Shown here: one piece after another, positions 1,666-29,870 of the stretch | Layout: every line of letters begins with the position of its first letter | How positions within the stretch are numbered: position 1 is the stretch's first letter | Source: Candidatus Iainarchaeum sp. | GTDB lineage: Archaea; Iainarchaeota; Iainarchaeia; Iainarchaeales; CSSED10-239 | Direction: 5' to 3' | DNA length: 32,000 nt | Assembly: GCA_003559395.1 (NCBI GenBank) | Contig: PWLL01000051.1 | Location: 1 to 32,000 of the forward strand | Made by a program: the position numbers and the translations under genes | The notes under the pieces: model-generated | The model's input: only the letters and a program-made list of their open reading frames with translations | What the model was told of the DNA's origin: nothing | The model's database searches: none

Positions 1666-4617
1666 GTTACGCCAATTAGTGGATAACTTGGCTTGTAGAC
1701 CGATGAAGAGCGTGGCAAGCTGCGATAAGCTTGGGGTAGGCGCATGCAGCCTTTGATCCCAAGATACTTGAATCATCCAGTTTTTCTGGAAGGGAACCTA
1801 GGGAATTGAAGCATCTTAGTACCTAGAGGAAAAGAAAACAAACGTGATTCCGTTAATAGGGTCGACCGAAAGCGGAGAAGAACAAACCGAATCTCTTATA
1901 GTGATATAAGAGACATGTGGGGTTTTGGCTTATTTACTTCTTAAATACGAAGTTGAATTTTTTCTGGAATGTTAAACCATAGAGGGTTATAGTCCCGTAA
2001 ACATAAACTATTTAAGAAGATTTTTAAGATCCAAGAGTATTGCGCGTTGGATATCGCGTAAGAACATGGCAGGCACTTACTGCTAATTCTAAATATACTA
2101 CAAGACCGATAGTAAATGAGTACTGTGAAGGAAAGTTGAAAAGTACTCCTAACGGAGGGTTAAAAGCACTTGAAACTAATTGGTTACTGTACGGGCATGG
2201 CCTGAAAGTAATGACGATGGATAATAAGGGCGTACTTTTGTACAAACGTCATCTATCTGAACGAGGTTGTGCTGTCCGTCACGAAGCACGGGCGAGGGAG
2301 TTTATCTTTATGGCAAGACAAAGTAACGAAGTTACGGTGTCGAAGGGAAACCAATATGTTCGCAATTTTTTAATGAGGAACAAGGTGTTAACTGTGCCTT
2401 TAGTCATAGGGATATGACCCGAAACCAGATGATAAATGCTTGGGCAGGGTGAAGGCAACCAACTGGTTGTTGGAGGCCCGCAGCAGTACTAGTCTAACTG
2501 TTTGTGTGACCTGAGTATAGGACTGATAAGGTAATCTAATCTGGTGATAGCGGGTTCCTATCGAAAAATCTCTAAGGATTGCCTGGCTGAAGACCAATAA
2601 TAGGGTAGAGATACTGATTAGAAAGTATTGGAAAGAAATTTCCAGCTTTCTTGTCAAACTCCGAATTTATTATTGTCGTTGAATGCTGGAGTAGGGGCTG
2701 GCGGGTAAGCTGCTTGTCCAAAAGGGGAATAACCCAGACTACGATTAAGGTCCTTAAATACCAACTAAGTGTAAATGCGAAGGGAGTTTTATTTCCAAGA
2801 CAATTGGGAGGTTGGCTTAGAAGCAGCCATCCTTTAAAGAGTGCGTAATAGCTCACCAATCTAGGAATATTGCCCTGAAAATTAACGGGACTAAGTTGGT
2901 TACCGATATCGTAGAGCACATGTCAATGTGATCTGGTAGGTAGGTGATTTGGTAGAGTAGAAGCTAGGTTGTAAAATCTTGTGGATCTGCCAAATATATG
3001 GATCCTTGCGATAGTAACATCAAAGAAAAGTGAGAATCTTTTTCGCCGAAGGGGCCCAGGTTTCTTAGCACTAATTATTAGCTAAGAGTAAGTCGATCCT
3101 AAGTTGAGTCGTAATCCGATAAACAACGAAAGGGAAACAGGTTCATATTCCTGTACCAATAAAACACGTATGGCAACGTAAGTATCATTTTTGACAGTTT
3201 TGGCAAGGTGGAGTGTGCTTGTCTGCACATCTAAGTGTTGCAGACCTCTCGAGAATCATAATGATGAGAAGGAGGTCAGAGACACGAATGGGAGAGATCT
3301 TCCATTGAGGCCAAGATTCCATGAAAAGAGAATGATACAGTGTTTTATTGCTCGTACTTAGAACTGGAAAAGGTGTCCCTAGCTGAGTAGGCTAAGGCGT
3401 AATAGGAGAATTAAGTTAAGGGAATTCGGCAAATTAGCCCCGTATCTTAGGTATAAGGGGTGCTTACGGTTGTGTAAACTGTAAGTTTTAATGACAAAGA
3501 CCGTCCGACTGTTTATCAAAAACACAGGTGACTGCTAGCCTGAAAAGGTGTGTATAGTCACTGACTTCTGCTCACTGCTAGTACGTGAACATCAAGTTCA
3601 ATTGATCTAAGCGCTGGTAAAGAGCGGGCCTAACTCTGAGGCTCTCATGGTAGCGTAATACCTTGCCGATTAATTGTCGGCTTGCATCAAGGAAGTAACG
3701 AGATAGTCACTGTCCCTAACTTAAACCTAGTGAACTTGCTACGTGGTGAATATGCCACGGACGACCAATGGGAGGATAAGACCCCATGGAGGTTTACCAC
3801 AGTCTGATGTTGTGATATTGTTTTCATTATAGAGCGTAGATGGGAGTCGCTTATGCTGTTCTCGCCAGAGAGCAGATAGACGCCAATGTAACACCATCTA
3901 GTGAAGAAAATATTACTTAACGTTTCTTTGTAAACGGACAGCATTTGATTGGGTGGTTTGACTGGGGCGGTACGCCCCTGAAAAGATATCAGGGGCGTCC
4001 AAAGGTTTGCTCAAGCAGGTCAGAAATCTGCTTTAGAGGACAAGACCAAAAGCAAGCTTAACTGTGTTTCGCACAGCAAGAAACGCAGGAAGGAAACTTG
4101 GGTCTAGCGAACGCTAGTGTCCCTATTAGTGGGGGCCTAGTCTGACAGTAAACTTACCCTGGGGGTAACTGAGTTGTCGCGGGTTAGAGTCCACATCGAC
4201 CCCGCGGTTTGCTACCTCGCTGTTGGCTTACGGCATCCTGGTTGTGCATAAGCAGCCAAGGGTGGAGGTGTTCACTCATTAAAGCCGTACATTAGCTTAG
4301 TTAAGAACGATGCGAGTCAGTTTGGTTTCTATCTATTGGTCGTGTTGGTTGTCTGAGGGAAAGATACGTTTAGTACGAGAGGAACGATGTGTCGCAATCT
4401 CTGGTGTACCGATTGTCTGACAAGGCACTGTCGGGTAGCTACGTTGTATTTGATAAGAGCTGAAAGCATCTAAGCTCGAAGCGAATCCTGAAACGAGACA
4501 GCCATTCCTGCAGAGATGTAGGACGAGGACGCCGGAAGAAGACCGGTTTGATAGGTCAGTAATGTAAGACGGGAGTTTCTTACGACTGTTTAAGTTTTCT
4601 GATACTAATAGTCCGAG
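1666..4617 (+). rRNA. rrl: 23S (LSU) ribosomal RNA, archaeal type; ends approximate to about +/-15 nt
   Basis: Recognised LSU motifs: 5' GGAUAACUUGGC...GAUGAAGAGCGUGGCAAGCUGCGAUAAGC; GTPase-associated centre GGCUUAGAAGCAGCCAUCCUUUAAAGAGUGCGUAAUAGCUCAC (about 2812-2855); sarcin-ricin loop AGUACGAGAGGAAC (4372-4385). The 5' AUUAGU and 3' ACUAAU form helix 1. The region is GC-richer than its surroundings and is bracketed by a long inverted repeat. Confidence 0.95.
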
Positions 4618-6311: not shown

Positions 6312-6911
6312 ATGTGTGTTTTTATGTCCTACAAAGCATATCTTGATATTGAAGTATCAAATCTTAAACTTGTTATAAAATCAATAATAAAAAACTTTGA
6401 AGAAGAAAATCTTTATCTATTGCATAGACTAGACGAAGCTTTGTTAGAAAAAGCAATAATCGATAATGATGCCGATATTGTTAATCTTTCAGTTGTGGCC
6501 TATTGTTTTAGAAAATTGTTATCTAAAAAACACATCATAAACAATATAAAATGGCCAGAAATAAAACAGAAACTACTTGATAGTCTCTATAAAATACAAA
6601 AACACATAATAACAGGAGACCAAAAAGCAATCAAACAAGAAATACTAAACATAGAAAAAACTATAGAACATACAGACAATCTCTTTGGTTACTTTGTTCA
6701 AAATCTAGTTACAAATTCAAGAACAAAAATTGCGTCCTCTGCATATGGATATGGTTTGTCTTTATCTAAAGCATCTAAACTACTTTCTGTTAACAAAGAA
6801 CAAGTTATGAAGATTGTTGGACAAACAAAAATGTCTGATGAAGATGAAACTATAGAAAACATAAAAAAAAGAGTAGAATATATTATAGAAAATAAAGCAA
6901 AAGAAAAGTGA
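6312..6911 (+). CDS. Hypothetical protein with a C-terminal UPF0175/COG2886-like HTH; putative antitoxin-like partner of the next gene
   Basis: 199 aa; an alternative ATG lies at 6324. The C-terminal segment KIASSAYGYGLSLSKASKLLSVNKEQVMKIVGQT resembles the UPF0175 antitoxin HTH (Y..G.iSlgkAA.l.gv....f...l). Its stop lies 4 nt before the next start. Confidence 0.45.
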   Translation: MCVFMSYKAYLDIEVSNLKLVIKSIIKNFEEENLYLLHRLDEALLEKAIIDNDADIVNLSVVAYCFRKLLSKKHIINNIKWPEIKQKLLDSLYKIQKHIITGDQKAIKQEILNIEKTIEHTDNLFGYFVQNLVTNSRTKIASSAYGYGLSLSKASKLLSVNKEQVMKIVGQTKMSDEDETIENIKKRVEYIIENKAKEK

Positions 6912-6915
6912 TTAT

Positions 6916-7584
6916 ATGAAAATTGTATTTGACTCAGGAGTTATTATTAGTTTCTCAGAAACTTGTTTTTTGCCTCTATTAAGACCATTAAAAGAAGATA
7001 TTGGAGAATTTATAATAACCAAAGGTGTAAAAAATGAATGCGTTGATAGAGTTAGAAACAACATGAGACTAAAACTAAGCTCTCTAAGAATAGAAGACCA
7101 AATAAACGGATATGTTTTTGATGTTTATGAAGGAAATAAAGAACTAACTGAAAAAACAAACAAAATACTATCAATAACAAACAGTATATTTACTATCCAT
7201 AATAGACCTTTGAAAATTGTTGATTTTGGAGAAGCAGAATGTTTAGCTTTATTAGGTCTTACAAAAGCAACATGTATTGCAGTTGATGAAAGAACAACAA
7301 GAATGTTGATTGAATCACCAAAATCTCTTTTAGAAATATTTAAAAAAAAACACAGAACTAAAAAAATAAAAATAGATGAAGAAAAATATCAAAAATTTAT
7401 TAATGAGATTGGAAAAGTAAAAGCTATAAGATCAGTTGACTTGTTTTCATATGCTTATATAAGAAAATTGTTAAATAATAAATATCTTAATAAAGAACAT
7501 CTTAAAGCAGCCTTATATTCTTTAAAATTTAATGGATGTAGTGTTTCTTTTAACGAAATTGAAGGATATCTTAAAGAAATATAA
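6916..7584 (+). CDS. PIN-like (COG2405/DUF3368-type) predicted nuclease with a C-terminal extension
   Basis: N-terminal MKIVFDSGVII carries the PIN first acidic residue. Also present: GEAECLALLGL...CIAVDERTTR, matching the GEAE..A....DD..AR pattern of DUF3368-type PIN domains. Confidence 0.5.
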   Translation: MKIVFDSGVIISFSETCFLPLLRPLKEDIGEFIITKGVKNECVDRVRNNMRLKLSSLRIEDQINGYVFDVYEGNKELTEKTNKILSITNSIFTIHNRPLKIVDFGEAECLALLGLTKATCIAVDERTTRMLIESPKSLLEIFKKKHRTKKIKIDEEKYQKFINEIGKVKAIRSVDLFSYAYIRKLLNNKYLNKEHLKAALYSLKFNGCSVSFNEIEGYLKEI

Positions 7585-19544: not shown

Positions 19545-20806
19545 ACTTAGAAAAAGATATTGAAAAATGTCAAATAACTCAAAAATTGATTTTGCCTATA
19601 ATGTACGACTATAAAAGAAAAAGAGATCTACTTATAGATGAAAATCAAAAAGAACAAATGAGAACTGAATTGCGAAAAATAAAAGAAAAAGCAATTGATA
19701 ATATAGAAGAACTTAAAAAAAAAGCAATAAAAAACTTAGAAGAAAACGGAATAAACGTTATTGAAGTAAAAGATAAACAAGAATTTGAAAATGCAATTAA
19801 AAAAATAATTGGTTCTGAAAAATTAATTACTAAATCAAAATCAAATGTTATAAAAGAAATAGAAATAGAAAAAATGTTAAAAGATAAAGAAATATTAGAA
19901 ACAGACCTTGGAGATTTTATTGTTCAAATAAGTGATGAAAAAAGTTTGCATCCTGTGACTCCAGGAATGCATCTTACACCAGAAAACATTGTAAAAACTA
20001 TTAAAGAAAAATTTGATAAAGAAGTTCAACCAACACCAGAAGCAATCGCAGCCTTTGCAAGACAATTTTTAAGAGATAAAATATATAAAGCCAAAGTTGG
20101 GTTGACAGGCGCAAACGTCATTTCTGCTGATGGAAGTATTTTTATTTTAGAAAATGAAGGTAATATTTCTTTAATATCTAGAATCGTTGATAAACATATA
20201 GTAGTAACCGGATGGGATAAAATAGTAGAAAATAGAGAAGAAGCACAAAAAATTGTTCAAGCGTCAAGCATCTTTGCCTCTGGTCAAAATTATCCTGTAT
20301 ATGTTAGTATAATTTCAGGACCAAGTAAAACAGCAGATATTCAAAAAAAACTAATCATTGGTGCTCAAGGAGCAAAAGAAGTTCATTTAATATTATTAGA
20401 TAATAAAAGAAGTGATTTACTAAAAACGGAATTTGAAGAACTATTATATTGTATTAACTGCGGAGCTTGTGTAAATCTTTGTCCTGTATATCATCAAATA
20501 TTTACCAAATATGGAAGTAAAGACTTTTCAGGACCAAAAGGAGTCATCACATCTTCATTTAGAGAAGATAAACAAAATGCCTATGAAAATGGAGCTTTCT
20601 TTTGTACATCCTGTAAACTATGTAAAGAAAACTGTCCTGTAAAAATAGATCTATCAGAACTTATAAAAAAACTAAGAAAAAAACTAGCAAAAGAAAAAAT
20701 AGAACCAGAAAATATTAAAGAAATGATAGAAAACACAAAAAAATATGGAAATCCTTTTGGAGAAATTGATGAGAAAAAAACACCTGATAAATTTTATTGT
20801 TGTTAA
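19541..20806 (+). CDS. lutB: LutB/LldF/YkgF-like iron-sulfur protein (LUD domain plus two 4Fe-4S motifs)
   Basis: ATGA overlap with the lutA-like gene. KSKSNVIKEI...ETDLGDFIVQI...HPVTPGMH...GLTGANVISADGSIFILENEGN parallels Bacillus LutB. Also CINCGACVNLCPV and CTSCKLCKENCPV. Confidence 0.75.
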   Translation: MNLEKDIEKCQITQKLILPIMYDYKRKRDLLIDENQKEQMRTELRKIKEKAIDNIEELKKKAIKNLEENGINVIEVKDKQEFENAIKKIIGSEKLITKSKSNVIKEIEIEKMLKDKEILETDLGDFIVQISDEKSLHPVTPGMHLTPENIVKTIKEKFDKEVQPTPEAIAAFARQFLRDKIYKAKVGLTGANVISADGSIFILENEGNISLISRIVDKHIVVTGWDKIVENREEAQKIVQASSIFASGQNYPVYVSIISGPSKTADIQKKLIIGAQGAKEVHLILLDNKRSDLLKTEFEELLYCINCGACVNLCPVYHQIFTKYGSKDFSGPKGVITSSFREDKQNAYENGAFFCTSCKLCKENCPVKIDLSELIKKLRKKLAKEKIEPENIKEMIENTKKYGNPFGEIDEKKTPDKFYCC

Positions 20807-22707
20807 TTTCTTTTTTCTTCTATTTCTTTTTTAAGATCCTCTATAAAACCTAGTAACTTTTTTTCTCCTAATATTTTATTATCTCTTGTTCTTATGTTTA
20901 TTGTGTTGTTTTCTTGTTCCTTATTACCAACAACTAAAATATAGTTTATTTTTCTTAACTCTGCATTTCTTATTTTTTTGTTCATTGTTTGTTGTTTAGG
21001 ATCTATATCTGTTCTTATTCCTTTTTCCTTTAAAGAAGAACAAACTTTGTTTGCATAATCAATATGTCTATCAGCAATAGGAAGAACAATAACCTGAACA
21101 GGAGCTAACCATAAAGGAAACTTTCCAGCAAAATGTTCAATCAAAACACCCATGAATCTTTCAACACTTCCTAAGATTGCACGATGTATCATAACTGGTC
21201 TTTTTTTTTCATTATTTGGCCCTTCATAAGTTAAATCAAATTTTTCAGGCATTTGAAAATCTAATTGTATAGTTCCGCACTGCCATGTTCTTTTAATAGC
21301 ATCAGTCATATGAACATCTATCTTAGGACCATAAAACGCTCCGTCTCCTTCATTTATTTTATATTCTTTTTTAGTTTTATCAAGAACATTTTTTAGTTTT
21401 TTCTCAGCTAAATCCCAAAGTTGGTTATCACCCATTGCGTTTGCAGGTTTTGTAGATAACTCCATATGGTATTTAAAACCAAAAGTAGAATATATTTCAT
21501 CAACAAAATCAATAAGTTTTTCAATCTCTTCTTCAATTTGTTCTTCAGTACAAAAAACATGCGCATCATCTTGTGTCATAAATCTAACTCTAAACAAACC
21601 AGATAAAACACCAGAAAGCTCATGTCTATGAACTAATCCAAACTCTCCTGCTTTTATTGGAAGATCTTTATAAGAATATTGATGTGCTTTATAGATTAAA
21701 AGATTTCCAGGACAATTCATTGGTTTTACAGCCTGTATACAATCGTCAATCTTTGTAAAATACATGTTGTCTTTATAATGATTCCAGTGACCAGACTGAT
21801 GCCAAAGTTTTTCATGTAAAATCAGAGGAGTCATATTTATTTCATAACCCTCTCTTATCATTATTTTTCTTACAAAACTAACTAACTCATTAAAAATAAT
21901 CGTACCATTATTATGGAAAAAAGGCATACCTGGCGCTTCTTCATGAAAACTAAATAAATCAAGTTCTTTGCCAATTTTTCTATGATCTCTTTTTTTTGCT
22001 TCCTCTATCTTAAAAACAAAATCTTGAAGATCTTGTTTGCTTGGAAAAGACACACCGTAAATTCTTTGTAATTGTTTGTTTTTAGAATCACCCTTCCAAT
22101 AAGCACCAGAAGCACGCAATAACTTTACTGATTTTATCTTACCTGTGTCTTTTACATGTGGCCCTCTACAAATATCCTGCAGCTCACCTAACTTGTAGAT
22201 TGTAACTTGTTTTTCTTCAATATCTTCAAGAAGTTCAAGTTTGTATGGTTCCTCTTTAAACATTTCTTTTGCTTTATCATAATCAACAACTAATTTTTCA
22301 AAAACAAGTTTCTCTTTAATAATTTTTTTAATCTCTTTTTCTATTTTTAATAAATCTTCTTCAGTAAAAGGATCTTTATCAAAATCATAATAAAACCCAC
22401 TATCAATAGCAGGACCAAAACCAATCTTAACTATAGGAAACAATCTTTTTACAGCTAAAGCTAAGATGTGAGAAGAGCTATGCCAATAAACTTCTTTTCC
22501 TTTATCGTGATTAAAAGAAATGACCTCTATTGTTGAATCTTTATCAACAGTTGTTTTAATATCAGAAAGAATATTATTTATTTTTACAACAACAGCATCT
22601 TTTAGTAAACTGTTATCTACTTCATTTATAATATCTTGTGCAGATAAGTTTTCTTTAACACTTATTTTTTTTTCTTCTTTGTTGTTTATTATTTTTATGT
22701 TTATCAT
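20803..22707 (-). CDS. thrS: Threonyl-tRNA synthetase, bacterial/eukaryal-type architecture (TGS + SAD editing + class II core + anticodon-binding domain)
   Basis: N-terminal TGS domain. Editing-domain motifs HSSSHILA and CRGPHV. Class II motifs FRVRFMTQDDAHVF and GAFYGPKID. 634 aa. Confidence 0.93.
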   Translation of the reverse strand: MINIKIINNKEEKKISVKENLSAQDIINEVDNSLLKDAVVVKINNILSDIKTTVDKDSTIEVISFNHDKGKEVYWHSSSHILALAVKRLFPIVKIGFGPAIDSGFYYDFDKDPFTEEDLLKIEKEIKKIIKEKLVFEKLVVDYDKAKEMFKEEPYKLELLEDIEEKQVTIYKLGELQDICRGPHVKDTGKIKSVKLLRASGAYWKGDSKNKQLQRIYGVSFPSKQDLQDFVFKIEEAKKRDHRKIGKELDLFSFHEEAPGMPFFHNNGTIIFNELVSFVRKIMIREGYEINMTPLILHEKLWHQSGHWNHYKDNMYFTKIDDCIQAVKPMNCPGNLLIYKAHQYSYKDLPIKAGEFGLVHRHELSGVLSGLFRVRFMTQDDAHVFCTEEQIEEEIEKLIDFVDEIYSTFGFKYHMELSTKPANAMGDNQLWDLAEKKLKNVLDKTKKEYKINEGDGAFYGPKIDVHMTDAIKRTWQCGTIQLDFQMPEKFDLTYEGPNNEKKRPVMIHRAILGSVERFMGVLIEHFAGKFPLWLAPVQVIVLPIADRHIDYANKVCSSLKEKGIRTDIDPKQQTMNKKIRNAELRKINYILVVGNKEQENNTINIRTRDNKILGEKKLLGFIEDLKKEIEEKRN

Positions 22708-23000
22708 ATATTATCACAAATATTTATATTATATAAATAATAGAGTAGTAATGTTTTTTTATTATATGTTTTTTTGTAAAATGCCTGTTTTGTTAAAAAT
22801 GTGATTATTTTTGTTTTTAAAAAGTCTTTTTTTTGTTTTTGTGTATTTTTTGCCTCTTTTTTTTAAAAATAAAGGTTTTAAACGCTTTTTTTTGTTTTTA
22901 GTTCGTTATTTACTCTTTATTTTTGTTTTTTAAAATAATTTTTATAAATACGTCACGTATTTTTATTTTTTTAAAAAGAAAAAGTAAACTCTAAAAAAAT

Positions 23001-23267
23001 GTGAACACCAAAGCTTCGAAAAACAGGGTTGCTGACTATCAACCTCCGCATAATCTCGAACCCGCACTCCAAAAAGCAACAACCGGCTAACATACTGCTG
23101 CTCCTTTCCAGGCCTGGCAGGGTTAGATAGCGCGATCGTTCTCCTTGGACGAGTCGTCAGCAACTATGCAGAGAATAATCAAACATCTTATTTTCCTCAG
23201 CTTTAGTATAACTCCAGCATATGCGGATTTCTGGTACAGGAGACCGCAAACTTCCCAGTCTGTTCAC
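23001..23267 (-). ncRNA. Signal recognition particle RNA (7S/SRP RNA), large Alu-containing type
   Basis: The minus strand carries the helix-8 signature CCAGGCCUGGAAAGGAGCAGCAG (GGAA tetraloop plus AGCAGC; compare E. coli CAGGUCCGGAAGGAAGCAGCC). Terminal pairing is GUGAACA (5') with UGUUCAC (3'). It is a GC-rich island. A U-run (AUUUUUUU) follows the 3' end, and a TATA-like tttttaaacatat lies about 25-30 nt upstream. Confidence 0.75.
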
Positions 23268-23424
23268 AATATAATTAATAAACGATATGTTTAAAAACCC
23301 TTTCGTAGATAATATTTAAAGAGAAAAAAATGTATTTTTTGAGTTATTATTTAAAATAAGCGTTTTTTAGGCTTCTTTTTATATAAACGCAGAAAAATAC
23401 TTAAAAAAATTGAGGTGGTTTAAT

Positions 23425-24522
23425 TTGAAATCTATAGTACAAAAAGCAATTCATACTGAAAAAACATCCTCTTCTTTAGACTATGATACAAAAGAAGAAG
23501 GAGAATTTGCGGTACCAAAAATAATGGTAATAGGAATTGGTGGTGCAGGAAACAACTCTGTAAACAGAATCTGTGCAATGGGAGCTGCAGGAGCAGAACT
23601 AGTTGCAATAAATACTGATAGACAACACTTAGGGATAATTTCAGACGATATAACAAAACTATTAATAGGAAAATCAGTAACTAATGGTTTAGGAGCTGGA
23701 GCATATCCAGAAATAGGAGCAAAAGCAGCAGAAGTATCTAAAGCAGCTTTAGAAGAAGTTTTAGATGGAGTAGACATGTTATTTATTACTGCTGGAATGG
23801 GTGGCGGAACAGGAACAGGAGCCTCACCAGTAATTGCACAAATAGCTAAACAACAAGGAGCAATCGTTGTTGCAATTGTTACATATCCTTTTGCTTTAGA
23901 AAGAGCAAGATTAATAAAAGCAGAAGAAGGAATTGATTTATTAAAAGATATTTGTGATACTGTTGTTGTTTTAGATAATAACAGACTAGTAGAATTAGTT
24001 CCAAACCTACCAATGCAAGACGCATTTAGAGTAGCTGACGAAGTAATTGCAAGAACTGTAAGAGGAATTACAGAAACAATTACAATTCCAAGTTTAATTA
24101 ATCTAGACTATGCAGATATTAGAACAGTCATGGGTGGAAAAGGACTAAGTGTTATTGCTGTTGGAGAATCTCAATCAGTAAACAAAATAGAAGAAGTTGT
24201 AGATGACACTTTGAAAAACGCATTACTTGATGTTGATATAACAGGAGCAACAGGATGTTTAGTACACATAACAGGTGGAACAGAACTTACTTTAGGAGAA
24301 GCAAACGCTGTTGGTGAAATGTTAACAGAACAAGTAGATTCTAACGCAGCAGTTATTTGGGCTGCAAGAATTGATCCTACCTTTGAAAACAAAATAGAAG
24401 TAATTGCTATTTTTACAGGAGTAAAATCTCCATTTATCAAAGGAAGTAAAAAGTTTACAGGTGGAAACAACCAAACCTTTTCTAAACAATATGATGACGA
24501 CTTTGGTTTAGATGTATTATAG
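23425..24522 (+). CDS. ftsZ: Cell division GTPase FtsZ
   Basis: GIGGAGNN, the tubulin signature GMGGGTGTGASPVIA, and NLDYADIRTVM. The ORF opens at TTG 23410, but a GAGGTGG Shine-Dalgarno (23412-23418) 6 nt before the in-frame TTG at 23425 favours that start. Confidence 0.93.
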   Translation: MKSIVQKAIHTEKTSSSLDYDTKEEGEFAVPKIMVIGIGGAGNNSVNRICAMGAAGAELVAINTDRQHLGIISDDITKLLIGKSVTNGLGAGAYPEIGAKAAEVSKAALEEVLDGVDMLFITAGMGGGTGTGASPVIAQIAKQQGAIVVAIVTYPFALERARLIKAEEGIDLLKDICDTVVVLDNNRLVELVPNLPMQDAFRVADEVIARTVRGITETITIPSLINLDYADIRTVMGGKGLSVIAVGESQSVNKIEEVVDDTLKNALLDVDITGATGCLVHITGGTELTLGEANAVGEMLTEQVDSNAAVIWAARIDPTFENKIEVIAIFTGVKSPFIKGSKKFTGGNNQTFSKQYDDDFGLDVL

Positions 24523-24596
24523 ATAAGAAGAAGAGTTTATGAAAATAAACCACCTTCTTTTTTTCTCTTTTTTTTTAAAATTATTCGTGAAAGATA

Positions 24597-25532
24597 ATGG
24601 TATTTACAAAAGACTTTTTATGGAAAAAAGACCTAAAAGTAAAAGAACTTGTAAATAATTATGAATCTGTTGGCTTTCAATCACATGAACTTTATAGAGC
24701 ATCAGAACTTGTAAAAAAGATGAAAAAAAACGGAGCCAAGATCTACTTAAGCTTTACTTCAAATCTTGTAACAACAGGACTAAGAGGTTTTTTTGCACAA
24801 ACTATAAAATATGGGTTGTGTGATGTTATTTGTACAACTGTTGGGTCAATAGAAGAAGATATAATGAAAGCTATAGGAGAAAAATTTACACTCGCATCAT
24901 TTTATTCAGACGATCAAGAACTTTATGAAAAAGGAGAAAATAGAGTTGGAAATATTCTTGTTAAAAACGAAAGTTATCAAAATCTTGAAAGTTACATGCA
25001 AGAGATGTTAACAGAAATATATAAGATTAAGAAAAAATGGTCTGTATGTGAATTGTTAAAAGAAATCGGATTGAAGATAGATGATGAAAACTCATTCTTA
25101 TATCAAGCAGCAAAAAAAGGAATTCCTGTTTTTTGTCCAGCAATAACAGATGGTTCCTTTGGGTTTGATCTTTATCTTTTTAAAAAAGAAAATCCTGAGT
25201 TTGAAATTGATGTTATAAAAGATTTTGAAGAAATAATATTTACTACTACACACGACGAAAAAAAAGGAATCATTGCTTTGGGTGGAGGAGTATCAAAACA
25301 TCATGTGATATTAACAACCCTTATAAATGGGGGTGCAGACTATGTTCTGTATATGACAACCGCAAGTCCACAATCAGGAAGCCTTTCAGGAGCAACCACA
25401 CAAGAAGCAAAGTCTTGGGGAAAGATAAAAGATAATGCTGATGCTGTTAATGTTTTTGGAGATGTAACTATCACCTATCCGTTGATGATGATAAAAGTTT
25501 TAGAAGATCTTACAGAAGAAAAAACGATTTAG
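24597..25532 (+). CDS. dys: Deoxyhypusine synthase
   Basis: NGAKIYLSFTSNLVTTGLRG, TTVGSIEEDIMK, GGGVSKHH and EAKSWGKI (catalytic Lys context), all collinear with eukaryotic and archaeal DHS. Confidence 0.9.
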   Translation: MVFTKDFLWKKDLKVKELVNNYESVGFQSHELYRASELVKKMKKNGAKIYLSFTSNLVTTGLRGFFAQTIKYGLCDVICTTVGSIEEDIMKAIGEKFTLASFYSDDQELYEKGENRVGNILVKNESYQNLESYMQEMLTEIYKIKKKWSVCELLKEIGLKIDDENSFLYQAAKKGIPVFCPAITDGSFGFDLYLFKKENPEFEIDVIKDFEEIIFTTTHDEKKGIIALGGGVSKHHVILTTLINGGADYVLYMTTASPQSGSLSGATTQEAKSWGKIKDNADAVNVFGDVTITYPLMMIKVLEDLTEEKTI

Positions 25533-25629
25533 TTTTTGTTTGATTTGTTGGACAAATGAAAAACAAACTACCCAAAAATATATAAAATGATTGTAACATA
25601 TAATTGTTTATAACTATTTACTTTTTTGT

Positions 25630-25703
25630 GCCTCGGTAGCTTAGTGGTCTAAAGCGCTAGACTCATAATCTAGAGATCGAGAGTTCAAATCTCTCTCGAG
25701 GCA
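25630..25703 (+). tRNA. tRNA with CAU anticodon (elongator Met, or Ile2 if C34 is modified)
   Basis: Acceptor GCCUCGG/UCGAGGC, D stem GCUU/AAGC, anticodon stem CUAGA/UCUAG with loop CUCAUAA, T arm GAGAG-UUCAAAU-CUCUC. The G1-C72 pair argues against an archaeal initiator. Confidence 0.9.
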
Positions 25704-25749
25704 TTCTATTTTTAAACATAATCAATAGTAAATATATTAGGTGAAATAT

Positions 25750-25959
25750 ATGAAATTATCTGCAATAATAACAAAAGAAGATAAGATTTATGTTGCATAT
25801 TGTCTAGAACTTAATGTCGTTAGTCAAGGTACTAATGAAAAAAGAGCACTTGCAAATCTTAAAGAAGCAGTGGAACTATTTTTAGAAGATGAAGATGTAA
25901 AAAAAGTAATTAAAAATATATTTCCTGCAAAAATGTATTCATTAGAAATTCCTGCATAG
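25750..25959 (+). CDS. hicB: HicB-family antitoxin (short form, no DNA-binding tail)
   Basis: KLSAIITKEDKIYVAYCLELNVVSQGTNEKRALANLKEAVELFLED matches the HicB/UPF0150 pattern. An AGGTGA Shine-Dalgarno lies 6 nt before the ATG at 25750 (ORF track start is GTG 25741). Confidence 0.8.
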   Translation: MKLSAIITKEDKIYVAYCLELNVVSQGTNEKRALANLKEAVELFLEDEDVKKVIKNIFPAKMYSLEIPA

Positions 25960-25970
25960 GAGATTTATAA

Positions 25971-26192
25971 ATGAGTAAATTTCCAATTCTTTCTGGTAAA
26001 GAACTAATAAAAATATTAGAAAAGAAAAACTTTAAGGTTGTTGGAAAAAAAGGAAGTCATGTTAGATTAAAAAAAATAACTAAAGATAGAATATATATTA
26101 CTGTAGTACCATTACATCAAAGAATATCTCCTGGTACTTTATTAGCTATTTTAAAGCAAACAAACTTAAGTAAAGATGAGTTATTTGATTAA
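25971..26192 (+). CDS. hicA: HicA-family mRNA interferase toxin
   Basis: LSGKELIKILEKKNFKVVGKKGSHVRLKK...VVPLHQRISPGTLLAILKQTNL is a textbook HicA/YcfA pattern. Confidence 0.85.
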   Translation: MSKFPILSGKELIKILEKKNFKVVGKKGSHVRLKKITKDRIYITVVPLHQRISPGTLLAILKQTNLSKDELFD

Positions 26193-26955
26193 TATGGATA
26201 AAGAAGTTGAAACATTCTATAATAAGATTGCAGATAGTTACTCTGATCATGATGATAGGGTGTGTGATAAGATTATAGAACATTTTATGTTAAAAAACAT
26301 TCCTAAAAAAAAACTAAACATATTAGATGCTGGTGCAGGAATTGGCAGATTTTCAAAACCATTATTAAAACTAGGTCATAAAGTTGTTTTGTCAGATATA
26401 TCTTTAAAAATGCTAAATAAAGCAAAAAATAATCTTAAAGAATATTCAAATGCAGAGTTTATTAAAAATTCAGTTGTTGATATGTCTCAATTTAAAGATA
26501 ATTCTTTTGATGTTGTAATTATGATGAATGCAATCTTAGATTACTGTTAAGATTATAAAAAAGCTATGAAAGAAACATACAAAGTTCTTAAAAAAAACGG
26601 TATATTTATAGGTACTGTAAATAATAGGTTAATTTATTGTAAAAATCATGAACTAATAGAAGAAAATTATGAACTTTTCTTAAAAAATATGAAGACAGGA
26701 AATAGATATATTGTATGGAAAGGTCAAAAGAAAGGACACACAAGCCATGAGTTTACTTTAGAAGAATTAAAAAAATCTCTTTTAAGTAAAAAATTCAAAA
26801 TTAAAAAGATTTTAGGAATATATAATCTTTTAGGAAAATATGAAATGAACGATCTAAAAGATAAACAAAAATTTATTCAATTACAAATAAAGTTTGCAGA
26901 AAAAAAAGAATATTTAAACAATTCTCAAGATTTCTTTTTTATTGCTCAAAAATAA
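26176..26955 (+). pseudogene. Class I SAM-dependent methyltransferase interrupted by a single in-frame TAA (26548-26550)
   Basis: ORFs 26176..26550 and 26566..26955 are in the same frame. The N-terminal part carries motif I ILDAGAGIGRFS, VLSDIS and FDVVIMMNAILDYC. After the stop comes DYKKAMKETYKVLKKNGIFIGTV, the post-motif-IV segment of the same Rossmann fold. An alternative start at 26194 avoids the overlap with hicA. Confidence 0.7.
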
Positions 26956-26990
26956 TAATTTTATAAAGTATTTATTTATTATGGCATATC

Positions 26991-27040
26991 CATAATATGG
27001 AGATCGAGAGTTCAAATCTCTCTCGATGCATTCTATTTTT
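26991..27040 (+). repeat. Direct repeat copy 2 of the tRNA-CAU 3' portion (anticodon to 10 nt past the 3' end), degenerate
   Basis: cataatatggagatcgagagttcaaatctctctcgatgcattctattttt compared with tRNA positions 25664-25713 cataatctagagatcgagagttcaaatctctctcgaggcattctattttt. The acceptor-stem G is changed to T at 27027. No D arm or 5' acceptor lies upstream. Confidence 0.85.
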
Positions 27041-27135
27041 TATAAATAAATAGTTTATTAATACAAACGTATTAAATAATCTAATAAAGTGTTATTTTAT
27101 AAATTTATTGAGACTAATATATATTTGTGATAAAT

Positions 27136-27330
27136 ATGAATGTAAAAGAATCTTTAATAAAAGAAATTAATAAAGCTCCTGAGCCAATACTTGAAGAAAT
27201 ATTAAATTATACCATGTATCTAAAAATTAAAGTTAATCTACTTAATACAAATAAACCAAACACTTACGAATCTGCTTTTGCAAAAGATTGGCTTACAAAA
27301 GAGGAAGATGAAGCATGGAAAAATTTATAG
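27136..27330 (+). CDS. DUF2281-like antitoxin
   Basis: MNVKESLIKEINKAPEPILEEILNYTMYLK...EEDEAWKNL resembles DUF2281 antitoxins. It overlaps the downstream MazF gene by 16 nt. The ORF track start is GTG 27127. Confidence 0.6.
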   Translation: MNVKESLIKEINKAPEPILEEILNYTMYLKIKVNLLNTNKPNTYESAFAKDWLTKEEDEAWKNL

Positions 27331-27617
27331 AAGGAGACATTGTTGTTGTTCCTTTTCCTTTTTCTGATTTAAAAAACTTTAAAAAAAGACCTGCTTTAGT
27401 TCTTTCAACCTTAGATGGAGAAGATGTAATTATACTTCAAATAACTTCTCAAAACAGATTAGATAAATATACAATAACTATTAAAAAAGAAGATTTTGAA
27501 GAAGGCAAATTAGATATAGATAGTTTTGTTAGATGTGATAGAATATATACAATTGATAAAAATGTTGTAATATATAAGATAGGCACATTAAAAAATATAA
27601 AATTTAATATTATTTAA
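27315..27617 (+). CDS. MazF/PemK-family toxin endoribonuclease
   Basis: GDIVVVPFPFSDLKNFKKRPALVLS...VIILQITS...SFVRCDRIYTIDKN matches the PemK/MazF SH3-like fold pattern. Confidence 0.75.
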   Translation: MEKFIEGDIVVVPFPFSDLKNFKKRPALVLSTLDGEDVIILQITSQNRLDKYTITIKKEDFEEGKLDIDSFVRCDRIYTIDKNVVIYKIGTLKNIKFNII

Positions 27618-27665
27618 AATAAAGTATTAGACATATTAAAATAAAAATTTATTTAGAAATTATTT

Positions 27666-27697
27666 GTTCAAATCTCTCTCGAGGCATTTTATTTTTA
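27666..27697 (+). repeat. Direct repeat copy 3 of the tRNA-CAU 3' end
   Basis: gttcaaatctctctcgaggcattttattttta compared with 25683-25714 gttcaaatctctctcgaggcattctattttta: 31 of 32 positions identical. Confidence 0.85.
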
Positions 27698-27724
27698 GTA
27701 ATATTTTTATGATATTATTTAAAA

Positions 27725-28330
27725 TCAGATAAGATGTTTACTACAATTAAATATATGCATTTTATGATTTTTATCTTTATCAATTTCAAATATACTTATA
27801 CTTGCATTATCTAATCTAGGCTCAGGAATTATAATTGTAGAATCTTTATAATTTGTTTTTTCTTTTATTACAAAATGAATAACTTGATTTATACCATAAT
27901 GCCCAATTATTAAAATTGTGTCTGAAGATTTATGTTTTTTAATTATTTTTTTAATAAACTTATTTGCTCTATTATAAAGTTCTTTTAGTGGTTCTCCATT
28001 AACCATATCTTCTTTAATTATTGATGTGCTTTCTAAAAGATTAAGTTGTTTTTTTGTTTTTCTTTGCCAAATCCCTAAATTTCTTTCTCTAAGTTCTTTA
28101 GTAATCTCTATAGGTGTGTTTATGTGATATTTTGAAATTTCCCTTGTGGTATCTGATGCTCTTTTAAGATCACTAGAATAAATATAATCTATTTTTTCAT
28201 ATTTTAATCTTTCTGAAAGTTTTATTGCTTGATTAATTCCTAATTCTGAAAGATTTCCTTGTAATTGCCCTTGCATAATTTTTTTCTTGTTTTCTATGGT
28301 TTGTCCATGTCTAGTAATTATTATTTTCAT
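27725..28330 (-). CDS. Histidine phosphatase superfamily (phosphoglycerate mutase / CobC-like) protein
   Basis: N-terminal IIITRHGQT (RHG catalytic motif), SDLKRASDT, and ILIIGHYG (second catalytic His). Confidence 0.8.
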   Translation of the reverse strand: MKIIITRHGQTIENKKKIMQGQLQGNLSELGINQAIKLSERLKYEKIDYIYSSDLKRASDTTREISKYHINTPIEITKELRERNLGIWQRKTKKQLNLLESTSIIKEDMVNGEPLKELYNRANKFIKKIIKKHKSSDTILIIGHYGINQVIHFVIKEKTNYKDSTIIIPEPRLDNASISIFEIDKDKNHKMHIFNCSKHLI

Positions 28331-28586
28331 AAATAACTTAAGAATAAACTATAATAAATAATTAATGTTTTTAATAACATTTTTTCATTAATAATAATTT
28401 TTAAATAAGCTATATATTATCTATTTAATATTTATGAAAAAGAAGAAAACAAATAAGAAAAAAACAAAGAAATAATTTCCTTTTTCTCTTTTATTTTCTG
28501 TTTATAAACTATTTGTTACTATATATTATATATTAATATACAAATATGGTATATCAAAAACAACTTACAAAAAGGAAAAGATAAAT

Positions 28587-29870
28587 ATGACTAATTCTAA
28601 TAATAGCTTTACTAGCTTAATTAATGATGAAAAAGTTTTGTCTGCTATAAGAGACATAGGAATAGACACACCAACAGAAATACAAATAAAAACAATGCCT
28701 TTAATAATAAAAGGCCAAAACATTATTGCACAATCAGCAACTGGCACAGGAAAAACAATTGCTTTTTTATCTGCAATCTTGTCTATGATGAACAAACAAA
28801 AAAAAGTGCAATTTTTAATAATTGTACCAACAAGAGAACTTGCAAATCAAGTATTTTTAGAAACAAAAAAACTTCTAAAATATAAGGATTTTAGCGCTTG
28901 TGTTATATTTGGTGGTACCTCTATAGGTCTTCAAGCAAAACAATTAAGAAATGCTGATGTGGTTATAGGAACGCCTGGAAGACTAATAGATCAATTTGAA
29001 AGAAACAATTTAAAATTAGACTCTGTTAAATATTTAGTACTTGACGAAGCCGATAGAATGTGTGATATGGGGTTTTTTAAAGAAATGGTGAAAATTATAG
29101 ACAAAACACCTAAATCAAGACAAACCCTATTATATTCAGCAACAATTAATAAAGATGTTTCAGCACTTGAAAAAAAATATTTGTCCTCAGCAAAAAAGAT
29201 TATCATAGAAACAAAAGTGGACCCGAATAATCTTCTACAAGAATATTATGTAGTTAAAAAAAAACAAAAATTTGCTTTGCTTTTACATCTTCTTAAAAAA
29301 AACTCTCAAAAGTCAATTGTATTTAGTAATACTAAAAGTTTTGTTGATTTAATATATGATAATCTAAAAATTAAAAACGTTGATTGTTATAAACTACATG
29401 GTGGACTAGAACAAAGAAAAAGAACAAACACTATTGCAAAATATCATACACACAAAGATGCAGTCTTGATATCAAGTGATGTTTCTTCAAGAGGAATTCA
29501 TGTTGATGATCTTGATTGTATTTATAATTATGATATCCCTAGAGAAGAACTACAATACGTACACAGAATAGGAAGAACAGCAAGAGCAGGTAAAAAAGGA
29601 AAAGCAATTGCAATAATTTCAGAAAAAGAAGAAGAAAAATTTAAAAGAATGTGTAAAAGATTAAAATATGTTGTTGTAAAAAAAACAACGCCTGAAATAA
29701 ATTTGGTAAGTATGGAAAAAATAGAAAAACCAGATTTGTTTAGCAATAATAAAAAAAAGTGTTCTAATCAAAGAACTTCTAAAAGGTTTTCTAATCAAAG
29801 AACTTCTGATTTTATAAAAAATAGAACCAATAGAAGATCTAGAAATAAAAATAGACCTAGAAAAAAGTAA
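28587..29870 (+). CDS. DEAD-box ATP-dependent RNA helicase with a basic C-terminal tail
   Basis: Q motif TPTEIQ, motif I AQSATGTGKT, PTRELA, DEAD, SAT, HRIGRTARAG. The Arg/Lys/Asn-rich tail carries a 27-nt tandem duplication (ttctaatcaaagaacttct at 29762-29780 and 29789-29807). Confidence 0.92.
   Translation: MTNSNNSFTSLINDEKVLSAIRDIGIDTPTEIQIKTMPLIIKGQNIIAQSATGTGKTIAFLSAILSMMNKQKKVQFLIIVPTRELANQVFLETKKLLKYKDFSACVIFGGTSIGLQAKQLRNADVVIGTPGRLIDQFERNNLKLDSVKYLVLDEADRMCDMGFFKEMVKIIDKTPKSRQTLLYSATINKDVSALEKKYLSSAKKIIIETKVDPNNLLQEYYVVKKKQKFALLLHLLKKNSQKSIVFSNTKSFVDLIYDNLKIKNVDCYKLHGGLEQRKRTNTIAKYHTHKDAVLISSDVSSRGIHVDDLDCIYNYDIPREELQYVHRIGRTARAGKKGKAIAIISEKEEEKFKRMCKRLKYVVVKKTTPEINLVSMEKIEKPDLFSNNKKKCSNQRTSKRFSNQRTSDFIKNRTNRRSRNKNRPRKK

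Follow-up and report, generated by a model that had tools for sequence, protein, structure and literature searches.

Two toxin-antitoxin islets bounded by tRNA-Met copies in an Iainarchaeota contig: a probable accretion array of captured and reduced mobile elements

The closest described relatives of the locus reported here are mobile elements that integrate into the 3' part of tRNA genes, namely SSV1/SSV2 of the Sulfolobales and pTN3, pT26-2 and the TKV elements of the Thermococcales/Archaeoglobales (PMC7253208, PMC8371274). Integrases of family PF16795 form the "suicidal" class, the gene of which (int) is split upon integration (PMC8371274): since the attachment site of the element (attP) lies inside the SSV-type integrase gene, the integrated element is left without an intact integrase. 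An integrase and two direct attachment (att) sites are enough in vitro for excision into circles (PMC7253208), and related exogenous integrases can excise elements with a split int (PMC7253208, PMC8371274). A 2021 review describes the suicidal system as characteristic of hyperthermophiles and makes no mention of DPANN archaea, and according to Badel et al. 2020 a tandem configuration has never been seen for this integrase class in Thermococcales. Here we analyse positions 1 to 32,000 of contig PWLL01000051.1 (Candidatus Iainarchaeum sp., assembly GCA_003559395.1; the whole 32,000-nt stretch is hereafter the window), in which two integrase-less islets, each harbouring a toxin-antitoxin (TA) module, lie behind an intact tRNA-Met gene and are delimited by three direct copies of its 3' part. 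We read the segment 25705-27697 as an accretion array of captured, heavily reduced elements of which the TA modules are the survivors, and we assign to this reading a probability of roughly 0.6.

The tRNA-Met gene and the two islets behind it

tRNA genes were called with ARAGORN, and tRNA likeness was scored with the Rfam tRNA model (gathering threshold of 29 bits). The tRNA-Met(CAT) gene (25629-25704, + strand) is intact, with an Rfam score of 73.9 bits at 25630-25703, and is not of the initiator type because it exhibits a G1-C72 pair. A repeat search of the window returned a single three-copy family of direct repeats (25664-25713; 26991-27040, 94%; 27647-27696), the third member of which was re-placed at 27666-27697 by local alignment. 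Copy 1 (25664-25713, attL) comprises the tRNA-Met 3' part from the anticodon on, together with 9 nt of flank. Copy 2 (26991-27040), being both attR of the proximal islet and left border of the distal one, matches tRNA-Met at 47 of 50 positions, from the CAT anticodon to 9 nt beyond the 3' end. Copy 3 (27666-27697), attR of the distal islet, matches at 31 of 32 positions, from the T-loop to 7 nt beyond the 3' end. All three are on the + strand and reach about 10 nt beyond the tRNA end (TTCTATTTTT); this extension is explained by the native 3' flank, which reads GGCAttcaaTTCTATTTTTAATAAT in an empty site of a relative (L098, see below). The 23-nt core GTTCAAATCTCTCTCGAGGCATT occurs three times (0, 1 and 0 mismatches), and had no match in 100 dinucleotide-preserving shuffles with up to 3 mismatches allowed. 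Copies 2 and 3 reach Smith-Waterman scores of 85 and 59, whereas no shuffle exceeded 29. These are direct repeats of a tRNA 3' part with an intact tRNA at one end, the footprint of a tRNA-targeted integration scar. The AATATGGAG variant in copy 2 is also found in the second att copy of another locus (L109), and the left boundary of copy 3 is sharp; the same boundary (ATTATTT/GT..AAATC) recurs in an att copy of a close relative (L097). No att-type repeats were found behind the other two tRNA genes of the window (Ser-GCT and Leu-CAA).

The proximal islet, E1 (25705-26990, + strand, 1.29 kb), occupies the space between tRNA-Met and copy 2 and contains three genes, all on the + strand. The first (25750-25959) encodes a 69-aa HicB-like putative antitoxin, so called from its position and its conserved pairing with HicA at all homologous loci; it exhibits a weak match to Pfam DUF7387 (E-value = 4e-4), its best PDB match is 2yzt (E-value = 0.42), and no NCBIfam profile matches it. 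A 69-aa partner ahead of HicA is also found in L109, L112 and L118. The second (25971-26192) encodes a HicA toxin of 73 aa that covers the whole Pfam profile HicA_toxin (PF07927, E-value = 2.7e-17) and is full length, its homologues being 72-74 aa long; on this domain, the pair is a candidate type II HicAB module. The third (26194-26955) is a class-I S-adenosylmethionine-dependent methyltransferase pseudogene with an in-frame TAA at 26548-26550, within the catalytic domain; the Pfam domain is cut at this stop and becomes complete (Methyltransf_25, profile positions 1-97 of 97) when the stop is masked. The distal islet, E2 (27041-27665, + strand, 0.63 kb), lies between copies 2 and 3 and consists of a leader/promoter region of about 95 nt, an antitoxin gene and mazF. 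The DUF2281-like antitoxin candidate (27136-27330, +; 64 aa; Pfam DUF2281 E-value = 0.0018, below threshold) overlaps the start of mazF by 16 nt, and partners 78-96% identical to it precede MazF in L090-L096; no significant match to a profile or a solved structure was obtained by which to name either of the two antitoxins. MazF/PemK (27315-27617, +; Pfam PemK_toxin, E-value = 3.4e-14) is truncated to 100 aa by a premature TAA, which costs it 9-13 C-terminal residues relative to its homologues (109-113 aa). The codons following the stop (NKVLDILK*) are still readable to 27644 and match the C-terminus of an intact homologue (L092, ...NIIKNKVIDSLELK). Judged from its sequence, the MazF of the window may be attenuated or inactive.

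Neither islet encodes a recombinase detectable with Pfam. A tblastn search of the 32-kb window with an integrase reconstructed from relatives (below) matched only the att codons, the reading frame through the att ends 7-14 codons past each copy, and nothing resembling an integrase stands ahead of copies 2 or 3. Within the window there is thus no PF16795 integrase, no attP inside an int open reading frame (ORF) and no cognate int within an element. A first-pass annotation of this DNA, made from the sequence alone, had proposed the three direct copies, a proximal unit of HicB-HicA plus a nonsense-disrupted methyltransferase, a distal unit of a DUF2281-like antitoxin plus MazF, and the lack of an integrase in both. 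All of this stands, with the qualifications that HicB is named by position, that MazF is truncated and that the DUF2281 match is weak.

The extra copies could instead be functional RNAs (terminators, split-tRNA 3' halves or tRNA-like processing signals), or could result from misassembly or a local duplication. The T-arm hairpin of copy 2 is indeed intact, an 8-bp hairpin stands ahead of this copy, and each copy lies just upstream of a cassette promoter region. As a tRNA or tRNA-like arm, however, copy 2 scores only 17.4 bits (E-value = 4.7) with the Rfam model, and copy 3 exhibits neither an Rfam tRNA match nor a stable fold. The repeats do not qualify as a split tRNA or tRNA half gene either, as the full tRNA-Met is intact and no 5' half was found. 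The DNA between the copies is not duplicated, the two units carrying different genes, and an empty site exists. As to misassembly, an alternative that the first-pass annotation had itself raised, a Logan assembly of run SRR490128 contains the same arrangement in full: its genes are all 100% identical, and the three att copies match without a difference, flanks included. The att-MazEF-att unit is found again in contig L090, from another run and a different sample. The second assembly and this recurrence show that the arrangement is not an assembler artefact. We consider functional RNA, duplication or misassembly a highly improbable explanation of the repeats.

The first-pass annotation had further taken copy 2 for a displaced older tRNA 3' end that keeps an anticodon-arm fold. 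This idea fails: apart from the low tRNA score, the minimum-energy fold of the copy is an unrelated 8-bp hairpin (ATTATGG/CCATAAT). By the standard logic of attR sites, the left part of copy 2 would have been contributed by the element rather than by a displaced older tRNA. Just behind the methyltransferase stop, a perfect hairpin of 8 bp, TTATTATGG CATAT CCATAATA (26976-26998, z = -3.2), spans the left edge of copy 2; it could act as a terminator or be a palindrome bound by a recombinase.

Suicidal integrases and variable occupancy at the same tRNA

A metagenome scan with a 21-nt core returned eight loci. In L087, an ORF directly 3' of the tRNA-Met end encodes an apparently intact protein with the PF16795 domain (Phage_integr_3, "Archaeal phage integrase", E-value = 8e-29), which also matches the SSV1 integrase structures 3vcf/4dks (E-value = 1e-11), and its frame extends back through the tRNA segment (...SSNLSRGIFSISLEAF...). 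Contig L083, which stems from the assembly of L087, terminates in a partial tRNA-Met copy starting at the anticodon stem, and a ribbon-helix-helix-like ORF reads through this copy in the same frame (...THNLEIESSNLSRG). Joined, the ORFs of these two presumably contiguous contigs give a protein of 337 aa. L083, L087 and also L090 are loci cut off by contig ends at att repeats. The same C-terminal half, Int(C), follows tRNA-Met in L086, where it is 57% identical and broken by stop codons (a pseudogene). ORFs for the N-terminal half, Int(N), run into partial tRNA copies in L109 (tRNA-Met) and L003 (tRNA-Ser-GCT type), and a further PF16795 integrase is present in L092 (E-value = 1.4e-28). An attP inside the int ORF, with Int(C) running out of the tRNA and Int(N) running into attR, is seen in L087, L086, L083, L109, L003 and L092, and this layout is the defining one of SSV-type suicidal integrases. 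The 3' half of tRNA-Met is an attachment site used by PF16795 integrases that carry attP inside their gene. A hint in the first-pass annotation at integrases of the SSV type is accordingly borne out by elements of relatives at the same tRNA, and not in the window itself. Among IMG/VR viral contigs, neither the 23-nt or 21-nt att core nor the reconstructed integrase found a match.

Some further observations concern these integrases and their elements. The tRNA-Met 3' end CAAATCTCTCTCGAGGCATTT (window 25686-25706), read one frame over, encodes QISLEAF, and a motif (S/Q)(I/L)(S/L)LEAF stands just past the att segment in the integrases of L087 (about 6136-6107, - strand), L086 and L092 (690-713). 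The L092 element targets tRNA-Thr, and the DNA of its motif (CCTCAAATCTCTCTAGAAGCC) shares with the tRNA-Met core 16 of 21 positions. Int(C) may begin, at its 5' end, with an earlier att(Met) that now stands in another frame, which is what models of att switching predict. L092 also contains tandem repeats of a promoter + Int(N) + att(tRNA-Thr GGT) module (413-688, 3308-3583 and 6967-7086), with Int(N), att and Int(C) contiguous but frameshifted at one junction. These are tandem suicidal-integrase elements, an arrangement never observed according to Badel et al. 2020. The putative tRNA-Met element encodes a protein with a restriction-endonuclease domain (L083 130-747) and a 655-aa N6/N4 DNA methylase (L087 1931-3898), which suggests restriction-modification cargo on a DPANN mobile element. 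Finally, a 5.6-kb metagenome contig (L082), found only through one tRNA sharing the 21-nt T-arm/acceptor sequence with the tRNA-Met of the window, holds 12 tRNA-Leu/Ser genes within 1.1 kb (586-1716).

The gene preceding tRNA-Met in the window encodes deoxyhypusine synthase (DHS; 24597-25532, +; Pfam DS, E-value = 5e-102) and forms a conserved left flank. We graded relatives by DHS identity: 89% for L084/L097, 86% for L098/L099/L101, 77-78% for L103-L108 and 68-73% for species representatives. FtsZ and DHS flank tRNA-Met, and the DHS relatives at 68-73% are labelled Candidatus ainarchaeum, Iainarchaeum, Diapherotrites or Forterrea, which places the host among DPANN archaea of this type. In L098, L099 and L101, the order FtsZ-DHS-tRNA-Met is followed after about 240 nt by the orthologue of the DEAD-box helicase that forms the conserved right flank in the window (28587-29870, +; Pfam DEAD, E-value = 1.2e-46; 87.5% against L098). 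This is an empty site. In blastn alignments, window 23000-25710 corresponds to L098 8381-11133 (83.5%; 84% with L097), and window 28458-29287 to L098 11242-12066. The variable segment of 2.75 kb in between (25711-28457) is replaced by about 108 nt in L098. The histidine phosphatase gene (branch 1; 27725-28330, - strand; Pfam His_Phos_1, E-value = 1.9e-37) therefore lies inside the variable segment as well. The empty site expected by the first-pass annotation does exist, with the difference that the gene next to tRNA-Met in it is that of the DEAD helicase, the histidine phosphatase gene being absent. The latter may be a third and oldest unit without a recognisable att: a search for a fourth att copy to its right gave no score above shuffle level; the stretch 28361-28400 aligns suggestively to the native tRNA flank of L098, but it is AT-rich sequence. 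GC content is about 0.3 in core genes, 0.18-0.25 across 25800-28600 and 0.18-0.24 at the histidine phosphatase.

The site is filled otherwise in the two closest relatives. L084 and L097 share with the window the DHS-tRNA intergenic/promoter region and tRNA-Met, and diverge from it exactly after the tRNA end (GGCA), where a 0.54-kb unit with a single DUF6122 gene is followed by a partial tRNA copy. The breakpoint is thus at the tRNA end both in the empty site (L098) and in the site with another occupant (L097). Relatives whose neighbouring genes are 86-89% identical differ wholly in what they carry at this single tRNA end, which is a hotspot. In none of 80 species-level relative loci (DHS at most 73% identical) does tRNA-Met follow DHS; synteny there is too eroded for an empty site to be defined, as it is in the relatives at 77-78%. 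Together with the integrases abutting tRNA-Met, these sites support the earlier view of tandem attL/attR-type scars left by integration into the tRNA 3' end.

Such scars might also arise without an integrase, by Campbell-type homologous recombination with the tRNA or by shuffling between 30-50-nt repeats acting as portable homology. Near-perfect repeats of 32-50 nt are in principle enough for homologous recombination, the window holds no integrase, and precise loss to an empty site is equally expected from recombination between repeats. However, the repeats have their boundaries at the anticodon loop and the T-loop, which are the classic crossover sublocations of tyrosine integrases in tRNA genes, and PF16795 integrases with exactly this att in their ORF occur at this very tRNA in relatives. 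Partial copies are moreover rare: only one of 67 other tRNA genes in all loci collected (the tRNA-Leu of L114) has a nearby partial copy with a Smith-Waterman score of at least 36. An integrase-independent origin appears quite unlikely to us.

Recurrence of the islet modules and their possible origin

The modules of the two islets recur in other genomes and at another tRNA. In L092, a MazEF pair (MazF 73% and antitoxin 81% identical) immediately precedes the promoter and Int(N) of the PF16795 element that targets tRNA-Thr(GGT); after integration this cassette would stand next to attR, as in E2. In L090, the whole E2 unit including both att junctions is colinear with that of the window (87.7% over 718 nt), in the order tRNA-Met/att, same leader, antitoxin, an intact MazF of 109 aa and a degenerate counterpart of att copy 3. 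Its right-hand neighbour is unrelated to that of the window, and no orthology was found for the large ORFs that follow the islets in L090 and L097. In L094, a MazEF pair follows tRNA-Leu(CAA), with a 10-nt stub of the tRNA-Met end (GCTCGAGGCA) ahead of it.

The HicBA module exhibits a similar distribution. L109 contains an array in which a full-size element is followed by units of 0.5-1 kb separated by att copies: the element ends in Int(N)-att, and a radical SAM gene, att2 (score of 53 against a shuffle maximum of 25), HicBA, a degenerate att3, a methyltransferase and a stub att4 come after it. The 10-mer TTTTAAGGCA is found three times in this locus. Its HicBA is 80.2% identical in nucleotides to window 25699-26192 (blastn). 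The methyltransferase of L109 is not an orthologue of that in the window, matching it at only 32% over the N-terminal domain; these are different genes. In L112 and L114, the HicBA cassette and its leader are 81.6% identical in nucleotides over window 25706-26195 (blastn), the homology beginning at 25706, directly past the tRNA. The L114 cassette has tRNA-Leu(CAA) on one side and a partial tRNA-Leu copy on the other (score of 48 against 28 in shuffles), with a stub of the tRNA-Met end on its left. L094 and L112/L114 have flanks 87-93% identical (tRNA-Leu-CAA on the left, threonyl-tRNA synthetase, ThrRS, on the right) and different cassettes, namely MazEF+GrpB (L094 1582-2752) versus HicBA with the partial tRNA-Leu copy (L114 347-932). 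The interval between tRNA-Leu and ThrRS forms another hotspot, where turnover takes place at the scale of cassettes. Cassettes are about 81% identical in nucleotides between hosts, whereas the adjacent ThrRS is about 70% identical in nucleotides (61-62% in amino acids) to the ThrRS of the window, an imperfect clock since the L098 copy is only 49% identical to that of the window. As an observation apart, this 49% (L098 1514-3466 against window 20803-22707) compares with 61-66% in more distant relatives, and one lineage seems to carry a replaced (xenologous) ThrRS.

The same trimmed modules are present both in integrase-bearing and in att-flanked contexts elsewhere. In the reading we prefer, mobile elements of DPANN (Iainarchaeota-like) archaea would attach at the 3' half of tRNA-Met by means of SSV-type tyrosine integrases. 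Each integration would regenerate the tRNA at the left, leave a partial tRNA copy (attR) at the right, and split int into Int(N) and Int(C), by which the element would be trapped. Repeated integration into the regenerated tRNA would stack units outward, the oldest becoming the most distal. Reductive deletion may then have removed all but the loss-resistant modules (HicBA, MazEF) and a few passengers, among them the methyltransferase, now a pseudogene, and perhaps the histidine phosphatase. The outcome at 25705-27697 would be two integrase-less, att-delimited modules unable to move alone, and related elements could take up att-headed modules by att x att recombination and spread them as cargo. 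Such carriage is the likely reason why these [att-TA cassette] modules are also found in further genomes and behind a second tRNA. Whereas the site itself, its occupancy and the lack of int in its att-bounded units are directly observed, we infer the order of events, the deletions, the TA-driven retention and the carriage as cargo. Signs of decay are at hand in the nonsense codon of the methyltransferase and the truncated MazF. In the window as in L109, att copies become shorter or more degenerate with distance from the tRNA, which agrees with the oldest units being furthest out.

Several observations weigh against this account. No coding trace of Int(N) or Int(C) stands beside any of the three att copies of the window, and about seven comparable units of 0.5-1.3 kb at other loci are likewise devoid of int fragments; random deletion should often leave such fragments, so their absence speaks against decay. 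Copies 2 and 3 have sharp left boundaries that show no gradual erosion. The window, L109 and L114 have in common the junction "att(Met) 3' end / CTATTTTTAAA leader / HicB", which implies that the module travelled in a pre-trimmed state, and independent decay in each host does not explain it. The difference between cassettes (about 81%) and ThrRS (about 70%) in nucleotide identity also points to horizontal movement of small modules. Finally, no integrase of the source genome was found in the 32 kb searched.

These points would be accommodated if the att-delimited units of 0.5-1.3 kb were themselves mobile, in the manner of integron cassettes, as circles with one att served in trans by a compatible SSV-type integrase from a co-resident or superinfecting element. 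Excision would occur between two direct att copies and re-insertion at the tRNA or at any att, so that arrays would be shuffled. All units are indeed cassette-sized and without int remnants: E1, E2, the DUF6122 unit of L097, the MazEF of L090, the HicBA of L114 and, in L109, the radical SAM, HicBA and methyltransferase units. One cassette occurs with the same att-leader junction in different arrays next to different neighbours, and DUF6122 and MazEF both stand behind the same att left boundary (ATTATTT/GT). HicBA and MazEF+GrpB are swapped between tRNA-Leu and ThrRS within flanks 87-93% identical, and cassettes are more alike than the ThrRS of their hosts. The metagenome assembly that contains the att-flanked islet of L097 also contains a compatible integrase-bearing element (L083+L087). 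The biochemistry would allow it, as a suicidal integrase with two att sites excises circles in vitro and exogenous integrases excise split-int elements (PMC7253208, PMC8371274). However, no circular form or excision junction was seen in the assembled contigs covered, and the tRNA-Leu cassettes bear only a stub of att(Met), 9-10 nt long, at their left end, so that a clean att(Met) x att(Met) exchange did not bring them there. There is no att between HicA and the methyltransferase in E1, copy 3 lacks the anticodon-side half of att and may be a poor substrate, and the pseudogenes within units suggest inactive elements. The sample of units, having been found via MazF and HicA searches, is also biased. 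We regard independently mobile cassettes as the main rival, a possible but rather doubtful explanation. Its general form, equally tentative and if anything a little more so, is that tRNA 3' ends in DPANN archaea of the Iainarchaeota type would anchor integron-like arrays of 1-3-gene cassettes (TA, methyltransferase, radical SAM, DUF6122), exchanged between tRNA-Met and tRNA-Leu and between genomes by SSV-type integrases acting in trans from plasmid- or virus-like elements, with no resident integrase.

An accretion array of captured and reduced elements remains the reading we favour. The first-pass annotation had left a choice between deletion remnants kept by TA addiction and miniature elements mobilised in trans. 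This was the right pair of options, and the evidence leans to remnants or cargo modules.

The same annotation had counted a UPF0175/PIN-like pair at 6312-7584 as a third TA module of the window. No Pfam match at an E-value of 0.01 or below supports it, and the sole NCBIfam match (MbpA) has 17.8 bits against a cut-off of 90. As far as sequence profiles can tell, the number of recognisable TA modules in the window is two instead of three. The two ORFs at 6312-7584 encode 199 and 222 aa, much larger than typical UPF0175/PIN-like members.

Comparison with known systems

If the favoured reading is true, the self-splitting SSV-type system extends from the hyperthermophilic Sulfolobales, Thermococcales and Archaeoglobales to tiny-genome DPANN archaea, with a concrete attachment site and a reconstructable 337-aa integrase on offer. 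It would also show how reduced genomes gain and keep accessory genes, the content that persists being mostly TA modules. Cassette-sized, int-free and att-bounded units in several genomes and at two tRNAs make exchange of cassettes in trans a testable matter in archaea. In practice, partial tRNA copies are markers of such islets, and they are a known source of false tRNA calls.

Like SSV-type elements, the locus exhibits a direct repeat that runs from the anticodon or T-loop region to the tRNA 3' end, and the loci of relatives (not the window) add the PF16795 catalytic domain and attP inside the int ORF. Unlike these elements, which measure 9-40 kb, the units of the window measure 0.6-1.3 kb, contain no int fragment and are stacked in tandem, and their hosts are DPANN archaea assembled from metagenomes. 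We found no paper in the literature linking SSV-type integrases with these DPANN lineages.

"Gene capture" of integrated plasmids and viruses in Sulfolobus chromosomes was reportedly described by She et al. in 2001. There, as proposed here, a split integrase traps the element, and decay leaves att-flanked foreign genes fixed. The pieces in the window differ in being reduced to single TA operons, and the same trimmed modules are found behind two different tRNAs and in several genomes. In bacteria, cis-mobilisable elements (CIMEs) and the tandem accretion of genomic islands at tRNA/tmRNA genes provide att-flanked, integrase-less islands with TA stabilisers. The structure of our locus (att-flanked, without int, in tandem beside a tRNA) fits this description, and mobilisation by a neighbouring or incoming integrase would be possible by analogy. 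In contrast to CIMEs, the recombinase is archaeal with attP in its gene, the units are far smaller, and there are no conjugation or mobilisation functions.

Chromosomal integrons share with the locus the one- or two-gene, promoter-poor cassettes between site repeats, the richness in TA modules and the cassette-scale turnover between relatives. Unlike integrons, the locus has no IntI, attI or attC: its repeats are copies of a tRNA 3' part and not attC-like imperfect palindromes, and the array is anchored on a functional tRNA. PYG1-type islands of the Thermococcaceae are also flanked by a complete and a partial tRNA copy, theirs being 44-bp direct repeats (PMC9897764), and these partial copies can be mistaken for tRNA genes (PMC9897764). 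Those islands are about 9-23 kb long and keep their integrase, whereas here three copies delimit units of less than 1.5 kb. The locus accordingly belongs to a known kind, that of tRNA-targeted integration by suicidal integrases followed by capture and decay. It differs from the known cases in its host group, in its tandem stacking and in the reduction to recurrent, cassette-sized modules bounded by att sites.

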